From a plasmid, in NCBI RefSeq assembly GCF_054482595.1, contig NZ_JBTHVH010000001.1: a DNA stretch of 64,000 nucleotides. The stretch is one strand, 5' to 3'. The notes below the pieces were generated by a model. That model searched no databases. It worked only from the letters and a program-made list of their open reading frames with translations, and was not told where the DNA came from. The position numbers were made by a program, and so were the translations under genes. Shown piece after piece: positions 20,926 through 27,543 of the stretch (position 1 is the stretch's first letter; each line of letters starts with the position of its first letter).

Positions 20926-23186
20926 AAGAGCTGTGCTATGGATCTGTTTGCAGTGGAATTGAAGCCGCGAGTATTGCCTGGGAACCGTTGGGTATGCGTC
21001 CGGCGTGGTTTGCTGAAATCGAGCCTTTTCCATCTGCCGTTCTTGCGCACCGCTGGCCCCATGTCGCCAACCTTGGCGACATGACAAAACTTGCCAAAAA
21101 AGTCCTGGCTGAGGAAATCGAATCCCCTGATGTGCTCGTCGGGGGTACGCCTTGTCAGGCATTCAGTATCGCGGGCTTACGTGGTGGGCTTGATGATGAA
21201 CGCGGCGCGCTAACTTTGAAGTATGTGGAGCTTGCAAATGCAATTGACGACAAACGGTCTGAGTCCTTCCTCAAACCGACAGTTATCGTCTGGGAAAATG
21301 TCCCAGGAGTCCTGTCATCGGCAGATAACGCCTTCGGATGTTTCCTTGCCGGATTGGCTGGAGAAGATGCGCCATTCGAACCAGGTGATCGACCTGAATC
21401 AGGAAAAAGTAACTCGTTCTGGCGGTGGGATGTCAAAACCGGTTGCCATGCTCCAAAGTGGCCGCAGTGTGGTTGTATTTATGGACCGCAGCGAAAGGTG
21501 GCCTGGAGAATCCTTGATGCCCAATACTTCGGAGTGGCACAACGACGCCGACGCGTGTTTGTTGTCGCAAGTGCTCGAACAGACCTCGATCCCGCAACGG
21601 TACTTTTTGAGTTCGAAGGCGTGCGCCGGAATATTGCGCCGAGCCGAAAAAAGAAGGAAATCGCTTCCGCCATTATTGCAAATGGCGCTGCAATCAGTGG
21701 CGAAAGCCTAAATCCATGCCTACACGCTGACATGCCACCCGGTATGAAATCGACGAAAGCCGTAAACGCTTTCAGGATGGCAGCATTTGGGGAATATATT
21801 GACGATGAAACCGCATCGACAGTAAAGGCAAGAGATTTTAAAGATGCCACTGACCTTGCCGTTTTTAGCAGCACAGGAGCAGGTTTTTGGTCAGAAGGGC
21901 ATGGTACATTGCGGGCACGTGAGCAAGAAAGCCATGAGCATCTTGTTACATTGGCTTTTCCTGAGCGTATGAGCGGTACACAACATGCTGCAACTAAGAA
22001 TACTTCACCATCTCTAATGGCTAAAAATCCAACAGCTGTTTGCTATGAAGTAAGAAACGCAGAAGTAGCTGTCCGCCGTCTTACCCCTGTCGAATGTGAA
22101 AGGCTGCAAGGTTTTCCTGATGGGCATACGTTGATCCCGACGGAAAAGCGTAAAAAAGTTAATTCAGATGAACTGGCATATCTTCGCAATCACTATCCAG
22201 ATTTAAGCGAAGAAGAGGCCGCGATGCTTGCAGCTGACGGACCGCGTTACAAAGCGATCGGCAATAGTATGGCAATACCAGTAATGCGCTGGATTGGCGA
22301 TCGGATTACTAAGGCCGTATGTCGGCAGAAAGAAGGAAGTGAAACAAAAGAGCGAAAAGTTAAACCAGCGGCAGAATTCGAACGGTCCATATTCAAATGG
22401 GCTGGTGGAAAATTTGGTGTTCTGGAACAAATCTTTCGCTATTTGCCAGAAGGGAAGCGCCTGATTGAACCTTTCGTTGGTGGCGGAGCTGTCTTCATGA
22501 ATGCCGGATACCAGGAAAATCTGCTAAATGATGTGAATGCTGACCTGATTAACTTTTACAAGACTCTGCAACGCGAGGCGAATTCACTTATCACTCTGGC
22601 ACATCGTTTCTTCCAGGACTACAACACACAGGAAGGATACCTGGCAGTACGGAATGCGTTTAACAAACAAGTCTATGATGATTTACATCGCGCAGCGGCG
22701 TTTTTGTTCCTGAACCGACATTGTTTTAACGGATTGACGCGTTACAACCAGGCCGGTGAGTTCAATGTCGGTTATGGGAAGTATAAAACTCCGTATTTCC
22801 CATTACAGGAGATGGAAGCCTTCCTCGGTGCGGAAGGGCGGTCTGAGTTTGTATGCGGTGATTTTGCAGCGGTGATTGAAGCTGCCGGAGAAGGAGATGT
22901 TATCTTTTGCGATCCGCCGTATGAACCGCTTCCAAATACAGAGGGATTCACGAACTATTCCGGTCATGACTTTAAGTTTGAAGAGCAAAAACGCCTGGTG
23001 TCTCTGTTGACGGATGCTCATCGTCGAGGTGCAAAGGTTCTCATTACTAACAGTGGCGCGCCAAACATCAGAGAGCTTTATCATGACAGTGGCTTCAGAG
23101 TGGAACCTCTTTTTGCCAGACGTTCTGTGTCTTGTAAGGGGGACACTCGAGGTGTAGCTCATGACGTTTTGGGCATATTGCTCTAA
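20922..23186 (+). CDS. dmt: bifunctional DNA methyltransferase (C5-cytosine-type N-half, Dam-type N6-adenine C-half)
   Basis: 754 aa. GGTPCQAFS and ENV motifs in the N-half; FCDPPY in the C-half. Confidence 0.9.
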
Positions 23187-23204
23187 TAAATTTATTAGTG
23201 TAAT
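23177..23204. promoter_or_regulatory. overlapping inverted pair of C1 operators
   Basis: ATTGCTCTAATAAATTT (17/17) overlapping the reverse ATTACACTAATAAATTT. TAATAT -10-like hexamer at 23201. Confidence 0.8.
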
Positions 23205-23209
23205 ATCGC

Positions 23210-23392
23210 CCCAATGAATCGTGATTTATAGAGCGATTTAGCTGTTAGCCGCGACAGGCGCGGCGGTAAGCATGGCTGGGCCTAGTCCTCCCAGACAAAC
23301 CACCGAGTTGCCAGGTTGACCATGCGCCTAAGTGGCAACGCCGAAGTGCGTTACGAGCTTCCAGTTTGCCCATCTTCGGGTGGGCGTTTTTT
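23210..23392 (+). ncRNA. candidate C1-controlled structured RNA ending in a strong terminator
   Basis: Hairpins GCCGCG/CGCGGC (23249-23265), CTGGG/CCCAG (23274-23294), GTTGCCA/TGGCAAC (23308-23338). Terminator GCCCATC-TTCG-GGTGGGC plus T6 at 23368-23392. No credible ORF. Confidence 0.45.
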
Positions 23393-23573
23393 CAGGGTTT
23401 TCGTCATGGTTAGCGACTTTGCGGCGGTTTAGAAACTGACCATTAAAGTAAATGCAAACGATGATCTGATGATGGTAGCGGCCTAAGAAACCAGATGCCA
23501 CGGGGTATGAGTCGTCCCCCGTCAAAAAAATCGACCGCAGAGTGTCCCCGTCTGTGTATTAGGGAACGGGGAG

Positions 23574-23656
23574 GCACAACAGGTAAGGGCGCTGGTGTGA
23601 TTAACCAGATGAACGAGAAGGGGCCATCTGTTGGTCAGCGTCCTTTCCTGTTGCGT
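23574..23656 (+). ncRNA. structured hairpin unit A of a four-member family
   Basis: Arms 23578-23594 and 23636-23652 pair over 17 bp (one mismatch, one G-T). Shares the base ACAGGTAAG/CTTTCC-GTT with units B and D. Confidence 0.45.
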
Positions 23657-23858
23657 TTTCTTTTCAGCGTAACAGCGGTGCTTAACAGCACTTTGGGTAC
23701 AGTTCCACGAATTTACGGGTATATCCCGTCATGCTGAAGGCGCTAATCACGCTGGAAGCCAGGGTTGTGCATCCCCTGTTACCGAATTGCAGCCAGGGCG
23801 CGGTGCGCCGAAAAGCATACGGAGGTGGAAGCCCTCGCCGGAGACGTACCCGGCAAGT

Positions 23859-23934
23859 GATGGTGTAGCTCAGCGGTTAGAGCGGTTGACTGTTAATCAA
23901 CGGGTCGATGGTTCAAATCCATCCACCATCGCCA
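23859..23934 (+). tRNA. trnA: tRNA-Asn (GTT)
   Basis: Manual cloverleaf: acceptor GATGGTG/CACCATC, anticodon loop CTGTTAA, T-loop GGTTCAAATCC, encoded CCA. Confidence 0.9.
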
Positions 23935-23936
23935 AT

Positions 23937-24012
23937 GCCGGTTTAGCTCAGTTGGTAGAGCGCCTGCCTTGTAAGCAGGATGTCAGCGGTTCGAGTCCGT
24001 TAATCGGCACCA
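23937..24012 (+). tRNA. trnT: tRNA-Thr (TGT)
   Basis: Acceptor GCCGGTT/AATCGGC (one G-T), anticodon loop CTTGTAA, T-loop GGTTCGAGTCC, encoded CCA. Confidence 0.9.
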
Positions 24013-24110
24013 GCACAACAGGTAAGGGTATTTTGCGACGTCGGAGATCGCCGAGCTTGGCAGAGGGTTCGAATCCCTACGAAGTACCCTTACCGTTGTG
24101 ATGAAGTGCA
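24013..24110 (+). ncRNA. hairpin unit B with tRNA-like interior, beginning at the base after the tRNA-Thr CCA (stem starts at 24016)
   Basis: 14-bp stem 24016-24030/24085-24098 with a bulged A. Interior has GCGA-N9-TCGC and a canonical T-arm AGGGTTCGAATCCCT. No D-arm. Confidence 0.5.
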
Positions 24111-24235
24111 GCTCTTTGAAGCAACCAGAAGATAAGCATCTGGCTTCACAACATAAACCGCAGGAACGACCAATAAACGGTAGTCCGTATGGAGAACACC
24201 CCGTTGAGGAAGAGGCCTGGCCGGAACCGTAACCG

Positions 24236-24345
24236 GCACTACAACGTTGAGAACACTGGCGTAACGGGGTCATATCCCAATCTACGAATAAATGTTGCGT
24301 TGCAGCGTGACAACCAGTGTTCTCAACATTGTGGTGAATGCACAG
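24236..24345 (+). ncRNA. hairpin unit C
   Basis: 19-bp stem 24241-24259/24314-24332. Interior motif GTAACGGGGTCATATCCCAATCTAC. 3' tail GGTGAATGC. Confidence 0.45.
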
Positions 24346-24510
24346 GCTGATGTGCCGCAACTACAGTAGTGCGCGCTTTGCGGGGCTTGCTACAACCCTG
24401 TGTCGGAGTTCAGCACCGACCATCACAGTTTGATTCTCTGGCATGAGCATAACGCTGAAATAAGTCCAGCCTGGTGCGGCCCGATCACCCGCCGTTAGCT
24501 CCACGAAACG

Positions 24511-24605
24511 GAGCACGTAACAGGTAAGAGCATTCTCCTGTAACGGGTTCATATCCCAATCTACAGGTCCACCAAGAATGCTCTTTCCGTTGCGGTGAAT
24601 GCGGC
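24511..24605 (+). ncRNA. hairpin unit D
   Basis: Stem 24518-24536/24575-24592. The interior GTAACGGGTTCATATCCCAATCTAC is near-identical to unit C. 3' tail GGTGAATGC. Confidence 0.45.
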
Positions 24606-24744
24606 TAAGCACACGCGGGGAAATGGTTATATCAGTCCATTCATTTCTCCTTGTTTCCCCGTCCACGGTGGATAACCAGCCAAAGGACACCGGGAGGCAC
24701 CCGGCACCGCAGCTTTTTTATTCGTTAAATAATGGAGTGAGAGG

Positions 24745-24981
24745 ATGCAGAACAATCCGAACAAATGTCGAACGCTATGGGTGCGGTTATATATTTATGC
24801 CGTCCTCTGTTTGATTGTGTCACTGGTTCTGTATGTTTGGCTTTTGCCAAATATGATCTCATCTAACAGCACAATACTTGTATTGTTGGGAGTCCTTCTC
24901 GCGCTCATTTACCCGGCTTTCGCAGTAGTCTTTTTTCGTGAAAAAACCAGGAAATTAATTAATGAAAAAAACGTTGATTAG
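24745..24981 (+). CDS. small two-TM membrane protein
   Basis: 78 aa with two hydrophobic helices. Overlaps the next gene by 20 nt. Confidence 0.6.
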   Translation: MQNNPNKCRTLWVRLYIYAVLCLIVSLVLYVWLLPNMISSNSTILVLLGVLLALIYPAFAVVFFREKTRKLINEKNVD

Positions 24982-25789
24982 TGCAGCGATTATTTTGGGT
25001 TCTTTATGTCTGACCGGATGCGATCGGGTAGAGCCAGGTAACGTAGGGATCAAAGTAAATAAGCTGGGGGATGATAAAGGTATCGGTGAAGTAGTTGGCG
25101 TTGGTCGCTACTGGACAGGCTTGAATACTGAAGTTTATATCTTCCCGACCTTTAAGCAAATGAAGACATACGATGAGCCGTTCAGCTTCCAGATGAGCGA
25201 CGGAACAACCATTGGTTACCACATCGGCGTAGCCTACAAGGTTGATCCAGCAAAAGTCACAACGGTATTTCAGACCTATCGCAAAGGTGTAGATGATATT
25301 ACTGATACCGATCTACGCCAGAAGGTTGCAGATGCTCTGAACCGGTTAGCCAGCAAAATGACCACCGACAAATTTATCGACGGTGGCAAATCTGAATTGC
25401 TTGATGCAGCCCTTAAAGACATTCAGGAAGAAATGACGCCAATCGGCATTCAGGTGATGAGCCTCTCTTATGTAGGTAAGCCAGAATACCCGCCAACAGT
25501 TATTGACAGTATTAACGCCAAAGTCACGGCAAACCAAAAAACCCTGCAACGCGAGCAAGAGGTCAAACAACGTGAAGCAGAGGCCAACATGCTGCGCGCG
25601 GAAGCTGCCGGACAGGCTGATGCTATTCGCACAAAAGCCCAGGCCGAAGCTGATGCCATTCGTTTACGTGGTGAAGCTCTGCGCCAGAACCCCGGTGTTA
25701 TGGAGTTGGAAGCGATCAACAAATGGAACGGTACATTACCGCAGTATATGACCAGTAATACCGCTGTTCCGTTTGTTCCGGTGAAATAA
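24962..25789 (+). CDS. SPFH/band-7 family lipoprotein
   Basis: Lipobox CLTGC. SPFH-like core. C-terminal A/E/Q/R coiled coil. Confidence 0.75.
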   Translation: MKKTLISAAIILGSLCLTGCDRVEPGNVGIKVNKLGDDKGIGEVVGVGRYWTGLNTEVYIFPTFKQMKTYDEPFSFQMSDGTTIGYHIGVAYKVDPAKVTTVFQTYRKGVDDITDTDLRQKVADALNRLASKMTTDKFIDGGKSELLDAALKDIQEEMTPIGIQVMSLSYVGKPEYPPTVIDSINAKVTANQKTLQREQEVKQREAEANMLRAEAAGQADAIRTKAQAEADAIRLRGEALRQNPGVMELEAINKWNGTLPQYMTSNTAVPFVPVK

Positions 25790-25816
25790 AAGCGTAAGCA
25801 AAATTGGCAGTAATCC

Positions 25817-25892
25817 GGCCCTTTAGCTCAGTGGTTAGAGCTGGCGACTCATAATCGCACGGTCACCGGTTCAAGTCCGGTAGGGGCCACCA
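25817..25892 (+). tRNA. tRNA with CAT anticodon (Met or lysidine-type Ile; the P1 counterpart is annotated trnI)
   Basis: Acceptor GGCCCTT/AGGGGCC, anticodon loop CTCATAA, T-loop GGTTCAAGTCC, CCA. Confidence 0.85.
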
Positions 25893-26178
25893 TATTTGGT
25901 TGTAACACGGCGTCTGGCACATGCGTCGTTAGCGGTCTGGTGACGTTAAAAGGGGGGAACCTTGCCCCTAGCTCAGGCAACGAACCAGGTAGCCGGAATG
26001 TGCAAGCCACCGTTTGTTGTTTCTCGGGTAAAGGGATTCACCATCCTGGCGATTCGGTGTGACAGCCGGGAAAAGTCCGGCGCATTAATCCTGATTTTCT
26101 GGTGATGACTCATATCGTTAGGAGTGATTTGAGTATGCCGATTATATCTGACATTCAGCACGCCTGGGTGGAGTGCTA

Positions 26179-27543
26179 ATGTCTGCATCCCCTCTTGAAT
26201 CCATGCCAAATTCCCTTAGTGCAGAACAAGCTGTACTTGGTGGCTTAATGCTTGATAACTGCCGCTGGGATGAAGTTGCAGATCGTATAGTTGCTGATGA
26301 TTTTTATACCAGTGCTCATCGTGAAATTTTCAGTGAGATGGAGAGGTTATTAAGTCATGGCAAACCGATTGATTTGATAACACTTGCTGAAGCACTTGAA
26401 CAGAACGGTAAATTAGAACGCGCCGGTGGTTTTGCGTACCTTGCGGAGATGTCAAAGAACACGCCCAGCGCGGCAAATATTTGTGCTTATGCGGATATCG
26501 TTCGTGAACGCGCGGTTGTTCGTGAAATGATTTCCGTCGCAAATGAAATAGCCGAAGCTGGATATGCGCAGGATGGCAGGGGCAGCAATGAATTGCTGGA
26601 TATGGCCGAGCGTCGCGTTTTTGAAATAGCTGAAAAACGACAAAAGAGCGGTAGTGGTCCAAAAGATATCGCCAGCATTCTCGATGCGACGGTATCTCGC
26701 ATAGAAGAGTTGTTTCAGCGACCACATGATGGTGTAACGGGGCTTGATACGGGATTTACCGATCTCAATAAGAAGACGGCAGGGCTTCAGCCGTCCGATC
26801 TCATCATTGTCGCCGCCCGCCCATCTATGGGGAAGACCACGTTTGCGATGAATCTCGTCGAAAATGCCGCAGTTCGTAACGATAAGCCCGTATTGGTTTT
26901 TAGCCTTGAGATGCCGAGCCACCAGCTGATGATGCGCTCACTGGCTTCTCTTGCACGCGTTGATCAGACTCGTATTCGGACAGGGCAACTTAACGACGAG
27001 GATTGGGCGCGGGTTTCTGGCGCAATGGGTATTCTGTTGGACAAGCAGAATATTTTTATTGATGACTCAAGCGCCCTGACGCCGACAGAGCTACGTTCCC
27101 GCGCTCGTCGTGTTTATAAAGAAAATGGTGGTTTGAGCATGATTATGATCGACTACCTGCAACTTATGCGCGTCCCCGAGCTGCAAGATAACCGAACGCT
27201 GGAAATTGCCGAGATTTCTCGCTCACTGAAGGCGTTGGCGAAGGAATTACAAGTACCGGTGGTGGCATTGTCACAACTTAATCGATCGCTTGAACAGCGT
27301 GCGGACAAACGACCGGTAAATTCAGATTTACGTGAATCAGGAGCAATTGAGCAGGACGCAGACCTGATTATGTTTCTGTATCGCGACGAAGTTTATCACC
27401 CGGATAGCGAAATGAAGGGCATTGCCGAGGTAATTATCGGAAAGCAACGAAATGGCCCAATTGGCACGGTGAGATTGGCTTTTAACGGCCAATACTCACG
27501 GTTTGATAACTATGCCGGTGCTGACTGGCAAGAGGATTATTAA
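26179..27543 (+). CDS. ban: DnaB-family replicative helicase Ban
   Basis: Walker A ARPSMGKTT and DnaB motifs. ATG 26179 after GGTGGAG. Confidence 0.9.
   Translation: MSASPLESMPNSLSAEQAVLGGLMLDNCRWDEVADRIVADDFYTSAHREIFSEMERLLSHGKPIDLITLAEALEQNGKLERAGGFAYLAEMSKNTPSAANICAYADIVRERAVVREMISVANEIAEAGYAQDGRGSNELLDMAERRVFEIAEKRQKSGSGPKDIASILDATVSRIEELFQRPHDGVTGLDTGFTDLNKKTAGLQPSDLIIVAARPSMGKTTFAMNLVENAAVRNDKPVLVFSLEMPSHQLMMRSLASLARVDQTRIRTGQLNDEDWARVSGAMGILLDKQNIFIDDSSALTPTELRSRARRVYKENGGLSMIMIDYLQLMRVPELQDNRTLEIAEISRSLKALAKELQVPVVALSQLNRSLEQRADKRPVNSDLRESGAIEQDADLIMFLYRDEVYHPDSEMKGIAEVIIGKQRNGPIGTVRLAFNGQYSRFDNYAGADWQEDY

Follow-up and report, generated by a model that had tools for sequence, protein, structure and literature searches.

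The locus examined here lies in a 64,000-nucleotide (nt) stretch of plasmid DNA (contig NZ_JBTHVH010000001.1 of NCBI RefSeq assembly GCF_054482595.1), the whole of which is hereafter called the window. The segment of interest, positions 23177–23392, runs from a pair of operators for the C1 repressor at the 3′ end of dmt to an intrinsic terminator, beyond which lie tRNA genes and ban. Between promoter and terminator it holds an RNA core of about 95 nt that recurs in lambdoid phages and, in the Qin prophage of Escherichia coli, in front of the small RNA DicF. From 23100 to 24950 the window is 99.2–99.7% identical to phage P1 records; for conversion to the P1 reference NC_005856, the window position is the locus position plus 21599. 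C1 operators were counted as sites with at most three mismatches to the 17-bp consensus ATTGCTCTAATAAATTT. The features flanking the core are the following.

23161–23192, plus strand: predicted promoter P2ban, transferred from NC_005856.
23177–23193, plus strand: C1 operator Obana (formerly Op72a), 0 mismatches to ATTGCTCTAATAAATTT, at the position of an NC_005856 protein_bind feature.
23178–23206, plus strand: sigma-70 promoter P1ban, with the −35 element at 23178–23183 and the −10 element TAATAT at 23201–23206, transferred from NC_005856.
23188–23204, minus strand: C1 operator Obanb (formerly Op72b), inverted and overlapping Obana, 2 mismatches to the consensus, annotated in phages P1 and P7.
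23215–23240, plus strand: 5′ leader hairpin AAUCGUGA...AGCGAUUU (−7.0 kcal/mol, z = −1.9), found in P1-type copies only and absent from lambdoid copies.
23340–23366, plus strand: single-stranded spacer GCCGAAGUGCGUUACGAGCUUCCAGUU, at the position of the DicF seed in Qin and unrelated to it in sequence.
23367–23392, plus strand: intrinsic terminator UGCCCAUC-UUCG-GGUGGGCG plus U6, with a GC-rich stem of 8 pairs (23367–23386), a UUCG loop and a T6 run ending at 23392.

At the threshold used, 15 C1 sites were found in the window, compared with 0.28 expected by chance. The segment 23177–23204 is the divalent operator Obanab (formerly Op72ab) at the dmt 3′ end, with coordinates identical to those of the NC_005856 features, and P7 carries the same C1 operators as P1. 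An earlier reading made from the sequence alone had proposed an overlapping, inverted C1 operator pair here, a TATAAT-like TAATAT and control of the promoter by C1; all three agree with the annotation, the hexamer being the P1ban −10 element and the control being documented already as Op72ab/P1ban. Also on record before this analysis, together with operator and promoter, was the label "dicF-like region", an NC_005856 misc_feature that corresponds to window positions 23301–23402. From the −10 position we infer that P1ban transcripts start near 23213. The terminator, which the same reading had called strong and canonical, deserves both words: the U tract directly follows the GC-rich hairpin, and the folding energy of −12.8 kcal/mol (z = −4.3) was matched by none of 200 shuffles. 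Further downstream, ARAGORN and Rfam identified tRNA genes for Asn (23859), Thr (23937) and Met/Ile2 (25817), and no others nearby.

The conserved core occupies 23249–23343, about 36 nt past the inferred start and about 25 nt before the terminator. A pattern search gathered 141 copies, which comprise 76 distinct cores (alignment A1); a covariance model, R1, was built from core copies, and 80 copies were realigned to it (alignment A3). In a search space of 754 kb, made up of 80 loci, R1 produced 80 matches, that is, one copy per locus. The window copy scored 85.3 bits (E = 2 × 10−24), with the helices P1, P2a, P3 and P4 and a pseudoknot all formed. The structure proposed from these alignments comprises the hairpin P1, the helix P2a, which closes an internal loop, the hairpins P3 and P4, and a 6-bp pseudoknot between the internal loop and the loop of P4.

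23249–23263, plus strand: helix P1, CCGCG-ACAGG-CGCGG; 96% of cells paired among the 76 distinct copies, no compensatory change.
23264–23305, plus strand: helix P2a, CGGU (23264–23267) with ACCG (23302–23305), enclosing the 5′ pseudoknot arm and P3; 99.7% paired, with U-A changed to C-G in P7-type copies.
23270–23325, plus strand: pseudoknot, GCAUGG (23270–23275) with CCAUGC (23320–23325, in the P4 loop); 98.9% paired, C-G in phage P1 and U-A in lambdoid copies.
23276–23294, plus strand: helix P3, CUGGG...CCCAG, a variable hairpin; at least eight different stem sequences all pair, and three pairs change on both sides.
23307–23339, plus strand: helix P4, GUUGCCA...UGGCAAC, with the 19-nt loop GGUUGACCAUGCGCCUAAG; 98.1% paired, C-G in phage P1 and U-A in lambdoid copies.

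Three clean hairpins had been noticed from the sequence alone, and these are helices P1, P3 and P4, the last two being supported by compensatory changes; beyond them, the alignments point to a fourth helix and to a pseudoknot that ties the hairpins together. In alignment A3, which was fitted to R1, a fact that bears on its pairing figures, standard pairs fill 95.9% of cells, compared with 30–58% when the 3′ partners are slid by 1–3 columns. In the same alignment, 10 pairs (48 cells, compared with 7.5 in shuffles) change on both sides, with at least one such pair in every helix except P1. Lambdoid copies possess an additional outer helix, P0 (GUUGUGGC with GCUGCAAC), which yields a four-way junction, and plain energy minimisation of these copies gives the same junction. 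P0 and P3 contain many G-U pairs; since these would be A-C mismatches on the opposite strand, the structure belongs to the plus-strand transcript. By folding of the single sequence the core does not stand out (z = 0.0 for 23249–23343 and z = −1.1 for the whole leader), so that support for the fold comes from the comparison with relatives and not from single-sequence energy. The comparison among P1-like copies that the sequence-only reading had suggested was carried out, and the differences between P1-type and P7-type copies preserve pairing in P3, P2a and the pseudoknot; the fold is therefore still selected within the P1 lineage. Taken across the alignments, the pattern of changes indicates that the core fold is under selection in both the P1-type and the lambdoid lineages.

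Coding potential and membership of known families were considered for the same set of sequences. The copies are 125, 126, 127, 128, 130, 131 or 132 nt long (127 and 128 being commonest), and no reading frame is open in all 76 distinct copies, the best being open in 42. A minus-strand open reading frame (ORF) of 42–43 amino acids is open in P1 and P7 but not across the family, and with copy lengths that differ by 1–2 nt a protein-coding role was rejected. Thus, the claims that no coding ORF lies here and that the RNA is structured and non-coding survived both the 76-copy comparison and the search for a conserved frame. The proposed Rfam scan gave no family for the core: with Rfam 15 there was no match at E ≤ 1 over 23205–23356 and none at E ≤ 5 over the Qin core, so that no known riboswitch or ribozyme class in that release matches the core of P1 or Qin. 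A tRNA- or transfer-messenger RNA (tmRNA)-like gene was likewise rejected, as ARAGORN found none over the core and only the three true tRNA genes nearby; weak tmRNA-family matches at 23357–23524 and 23382–23486 lie outside the core and far below threshold. The ops element recognised by RfaH has the consensus GGCGGTAGnnTG. The string GGCGGUAAGUAUG resembles it only after deletion of one base, P7 reads GGCGGCAAG at this place, and the candidate was rejected by inspection.

A sensitive blastn search with 23205–23860 against 5,426 complete E. coli genomes gave matches in up to 4,267 of them. Among the chromosomal matches listed, nearly all cover only 23249–23343, at about 77% identity, and no RefSeq annotation underlies the chromosomal matches; no mention of the core sequence strings was found in the literature searched. 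About 470 P1-like plasmids also carry the element, as do at least 45 lambdoid phage records (including mEp460, cdtI, Stx2c phages, 2H10, Ayreon and Salmonella F1055) and prophages in Escherichia, Shigella, Citrobacter, Trabulsiella and Erwinia. What is new here is an apparently undescribed pseudoknotted RNA domain, supported by comparison across its many copies, that accompanies DicF-type terminators in the prophages of most E. coli genomes. Few bacterial small RNAs have been known for longer than DicF, and P1 is in standard laboratory use, yet the best-conserved RNA feature of both has apparently gone undescribed.

The K-12 W3110 match falls between ydfC and dicB of the Qin prophage (Qin locus L003, 1501–1597) and scores 152 bits with R1, compared with 85 bits for the P1 copy. 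DicF proper (L003 1622–1673; RF00039, 76.7 bits) follows just 3′ of this match, its 5′ end falling about 20 nt past the core. RNase E makes that end (PMC5069750), the locus produces DicF as a terminated small RNA (PMC9438474), and dicB belongs to the same operon, past the terminator of DicF (PMC5069750, PMC9438474). The element upstream of DicF is not mentioned in the DicF literature examined. The two loci are alike in that a folded element, a short spacer and a hairpin plus U tract, at which some transcripts stop, follow one another, and in that both the ydfABC-dicF-dicB operon of Qin and the P1 locus are early, repressor-controlled phage operons. In P1, as in Qin, the segment at the DicF position comes after the conserved fold and has a terminator at its 3′ end. 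However, P1 lacks the ftsZ-pairing 5′ sequence UUUCUGGUGACG and its terminator stem is unrelated. The ftsZ-pairing seed UUUCUGGUGACGUUUGG is not present at 23340–23366, where the spacer GCCGAAGUGCGUUACGAGCUUCCAGUU is unrelated, and DicF itself was rejected as a component of P1 (no RF00039 match at E ≤ 1 in 22000–26500, with a threshold of 48 bits and the Qin control at 76.7 bits). A further candidate, targeting of ftsZ by the P1 spacer, gave duplex energies with the ftsZ leader that are indistinguishable from those of shuffles; this test is uninformative because true DicF cannot be separated from shuffles either.

By sequence homology, then, P1 shares with Qin the element of about 95 nt that precedes DicF and not DicF, and the label "dicF-like region" is imprecise; the similarity behind it lies mainly in the part before DicF, and what the label denotes is homology to the leader there and not a DicF gene. 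The sequence-only reading had the hairpins, terminator and operators right and missed both this annotation and the homology to a widespread element before DicF-type terminators. The correspondence with Qin extends further downstream, to one more feature:

24591–24715, plus strand: STnc100-like piece (Rfam STnc100, 35.9 bits against a cut-off of 47), homologous to Qin L003 1685–1825.

The order in Qin is core, DicF, STnc100-like structure (L003 1685–1825; 34.1 bits, below threshold) and dicB. Compensatory changes distinguish the two STnc100-like copies (CCGGG/CCCGG in P1 and CCTGG/CCAGG in Qin). In P1, the core and the STnc100-like piece are 1.2 kb apart, with tRNA genes between them. Because both flanks are present and split by this tRNA-bearing 1.2 kb, the P1 leader looks, judged from sequence, like a lambdoid dicF-type leader from which DicF is missing and to which tRNA genes have been added.

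In lambdoid phages, the unit follows the repressor gene and belongs to the early-left operon, its place after pL being the one that N/nutL or putL would take. An Stx2c phage shows the order cI, cI terminator, a near-consensus pL promoter (TTGACA-16-CATAAT), a 275-nt leader, a boxA-like motif, core, terminator and early genes. A terminator also follows the core at the cdtI, mEp460, F1055 and Actinobacillus phage loci, all of which have the repressor gene upstream of the core and on its strand. Directly 5′ of P0, lambdoid copies carry UGCKCUYYNSG, which is kept where the sequence further upstream differs entirely. This motif partially resembles boxA (UGCUCUUUA), the resemblance being weaker in P1. 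Within the pL leader of an Stx2c phage (L151, 4283–4295), about 200 nt upstream of the core, we also observed TCTGGTGACGTT, identical to the DicF seed; the terminator module of that phage is itself without a DicF seed.

An automatic check found a terminator downstream of the core, within about 50–140 nt, in 76 of 78 distinct downstream sequences, and in one of the two that it missed (the L007 type) a GC-rich stem and T run are visible by eye. What follows the core differs between lineages: true DicF in some, several DicF-like hairpins with only a GGCGG/CCGCC base in common in others, and the P1 hairpin in P1. The distance from core to terminator is variable (about 12 nt in the cdtI type, about 25 nt, up to more than 100 nt) and the stem sequences are unrelated. 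Among P1-like copies, variation in the spacer includes one 4-nt insertion. Phage D6 keeps the terminator and the downstream leader and has unrelated sequence where the core would be. At L149 1274–1287, about 230 nt upstream of its terminator, D6 reads CCCCGCTGCAACG, the 3′ arm of the Qin P0, which may be a remnant of the element.

These observations bear on whether 23177–23392 makes a discrete small RNA or heads an operon as its leader, the first and second possibilities named in the sequence-only reading, and the evidence from context leans to a leader. NC_005856 states of Obanab that it "controls expression of ban", which lies 3 kb downstream, and annotates no promoter on the ban strand between the two; because of this, transcripts would have to pass the terminator. 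Our favoured reading, which we advance tentatively and, by analogy with known systems, at somewhat below an even chance, is that 23177–23392 serves the C1-repressed ban/tRNA operon as its promoter-proximal leader and that the core governs read-through of the terminator in cis. The core would act on the polymerase from which it has just emerged, in the manner of nut or put sites, and would let a fraction of transcripts past the adjacent terminator or set the efficiency with which they pass. Read-through transcripts would probably also evade Rho along the extended untranslated region beyond the terminator and so reach the tRNA genes and ban, and transcripts stopping at the terminator would leave an RNA of about 180 nt as a by-product, as DicF arises by early termination in Qin. 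Control of read-through by the domain would explain the expression of both dicB and ban across a strong terminator. It would also provide a second structural class of RNA-only antitermination, so far represented mainly by put and EAR, and a handle on the gating of toxic cell-division inhibitors by cryptic prophages in most E. coli strains.

A more specific and more doubtful proposal, to which we give somewhat less credence, is that the element represents a novel kind of antitermination RNA, phage-borne and acting in cis, unrelated to put in sequence and fold, that loads onto RNA polymerase, possibly with Nus factors recruited via the boxA-like motif, and gates the DicF-type terminator in N-less lambdoid prophages and in the ban/tRNA operon of P1. 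Were this so, the element would decide, in the prophages of most E. coli strains, whether a small RNA alone is made or a small RNA together with dicB/kil, recombination genes or ban. No member of an N-type antiterminator family was detected among 18 neighbouring ORFs, a search that small or unrecognised N analogues could escape.

Comparison with known antitermination systems shows likenesses of arrangement and proposed action and differences of structure. The put RNAs (HK022 putL and putR, HK639) also lie in early operons, just past the promoter and before terminators, in lambdoid phages without an N gene found adjacent, and are similar in action only by proposal, a nascent RNA acting on its own polymerase. 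The put RNAs suppress termination through binding to the β′ zinc-binding domain of the polymerase that transcribes them. However, put is formed by two stem-loops in about 70 nt, whereas the element has four or five helices and a pseudoknot in 95–125 nt; the comparison of copies supports a multi-helix junction with a pseudoknot and not two adjacent stem-loops. Lambda-type nut sites and the rrn leader consist of boxA and a neighbouring hairpin; the element resembles them in that lambdoid copies have a partially boxA-like motif directly 5′ of the structure and in that a long untranslated transcript, whose exposure to Rho we infer, begins with it. In nut sites, boxB is a 15-nt hairpin bound by N, whereas the element is large and has no N-like gene found nearby. 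The eps-associated (EAR) RNA of Bacillus is a pseudoknotted RNA of about 120 nt within an operon that promotes read-through of distal terminators. By analogy only, it offers a precedent for a complex fold with a role in processive antitermination; it belongs to another phylum, differs in sequence and fold, and gave no Rfam match here.

Several observations count against the cis-acting leader and the class proposed from it. Homology with put was rejected: with putL reconstructed from HK022 (numbering consistent with the residues named in PMC9378689), HK022 putR and the annotated putL-like RNA of HK639, local alignment scores of 12–18 lie within the range of shuffles, compared with 64 for putL against HK639, and R1 found no match in HK022 22000–33500 or in the whole of HK639. 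(The short words GCGCGGCGG, ACCAUGCG and CAGGNUGA, shared with put, were suggestive at first and align no better than shuffles.) The boxA-like motif of the window copy is degenerate (GAGCGAUUUAG), and only 5 of the 8 positions of P0 can pair in this copy. The alignment is of low diversity, with an effective number of sequences of 1.5, and many of the compensatory changes trace to a single split between P1-type and lambdoid copies. The P4 loop is identical among pattern-collected copies, save four free positions of the search pattern, an invariance that is partly by construction, the loop being fixed by that pattern; blastn matches found independently of the pattern also span the loop, and the window copy carries the loop GGUUGACCAUNCGC required by the definition of the element. 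No antitermination experiment or transcript map for the P1 leader was found in the literature searched, and the P1 transcriptome papers do not resolve the leader. Finally, the terminator that always adjoins the core fits a terminated stable RNA equally well.

That constant terminator is among the reasons to consider a discrete small RNA that acts in trans, about 180 nt long from P1ban to the terminator and made upon loss of C1, which we regard as unlikely but the most serious of the rival explanations. The domain would then be a scaffold, a protective 5′ structure or a protein-binding part, and spacer, terminator hairpin and U tail would form a module of the Hfq or ProQ type; a GC-rich hairpin with U6–U7 is typical of small-RNA 3′ ends, and the homologous Qin locus does yield a terminated small RNA, DicF (PMC9438474). 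Conservation of the spacer cuts both ways. It is identical in P1 and P7 despite the divergence of P3, but one P1-like copy tolerates the 4-nt insertion and, because the lineages have unrelated sequences between core and terminator, only about 12 nt in the cdtI type, there is no shared seed. Moreover, the downstream genes need transcription through the site. Leader and trans-acting small RNA could both hold, by analogy with DicF in Qin, and if the domain is a small-RNA scaffold instead, the unit would be a modular cassette with a conserved 5′ domain and an exchangeable 3′ module.

Less probable still is a role in biogenesis or stability, whereby the domain positions RNase E or RNase P, or blocks 5′ decay, for the correct excision of a downstream RNA, namely, DicF-type small RNAs in lambdoid phages or the tRNA precursor in P1. 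The four-way-junction topology is cloverleaf-like, and the precursor of the P1 C4 RNA is an RNase P substrate; against this, ARAGORN found no tRNA- or tmRNA-like gene, and the P1 tRNA genes lie 470 nt further on, past the terminator. The cut by RNase E that makes the DicF 5′ end, about 20 nt past the element by its position in the Qin sequence (PMC5069750), would suit such a role. In MicL, going by a title in the reference list of PMC9438474, adjacent stem-loops guide RNase E, and a pseudoknotted fold with invariant loops exceeds what these offer.

The usual layout of a riboswitch, a pseudoknotted conserved domain followed by a terminator, raises the idea of a ligand- or factor-sensing attenuator with the domain as sensor and the terminator as expression platform, which we consider very improbable. 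In lambdoid phages the 5′ arm of the terminator repeats the GGCGGUA of P2a and could compete for the ACCG strand, but the repeat is not found in the P1 terminator, the distance from core to terminator varies from about 25 nt to more than 100 nt, and no riboswitch family in Rfam matches. A riboswitch-like alternative pairing that involves the terminator was rejected, as no such pairing is conserved between lineages. Least credible of all is an inert relic in P1 of a recombined lambdoid dicF locus, with a terminator that only stops dmt transcripts, since the P1-/P7-type changes keep the pairing of a fold still selected and the element is kept in the approximately 470 P1-like plasmids, even though the core (23249–23343) and the STnc100-like piece (24591–24715) give P1 the two flanks of the lambdoid locus and phage D6 manages without the core.

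Several minor observations concern the region downstream of the terminator. P1, P7 and D6 share more than 95% identity over the 466 nt between terminator and tRNA-Asn (23393–23858, plus strand), a stretch that contains no convincing ORF; ahead of the terminator, by contrast, D6 is wholly different. The stretch is predicted to form a long hairpin, at about 23577–23660, with one compensatory change, variation here being too low for a structure test. The direct repeat CACAACAGGTAAGGG (plus strand) occurs at about 23577–23591, in the leader before the tRNA genes, and at about 24014–24028, just after tRNA-Thr. In P1, plp and upl are annotated on the minus strand at about 23982–24551 (L001 2383–2952), where plp overlaps tRNA-Thr; both lie within a stretch that otherwise resembles untranslated operon RNA, and they may not be real genes. 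Similarity to the reference P1 ends near window position 24711. In place of the P1 genes tciA-tciB-tciC, the window carries an ORF of 78 amino acids (24745–24981), the translation of which is largely hydrophobic, and an ORF of 275 amino acids (24962–25789).

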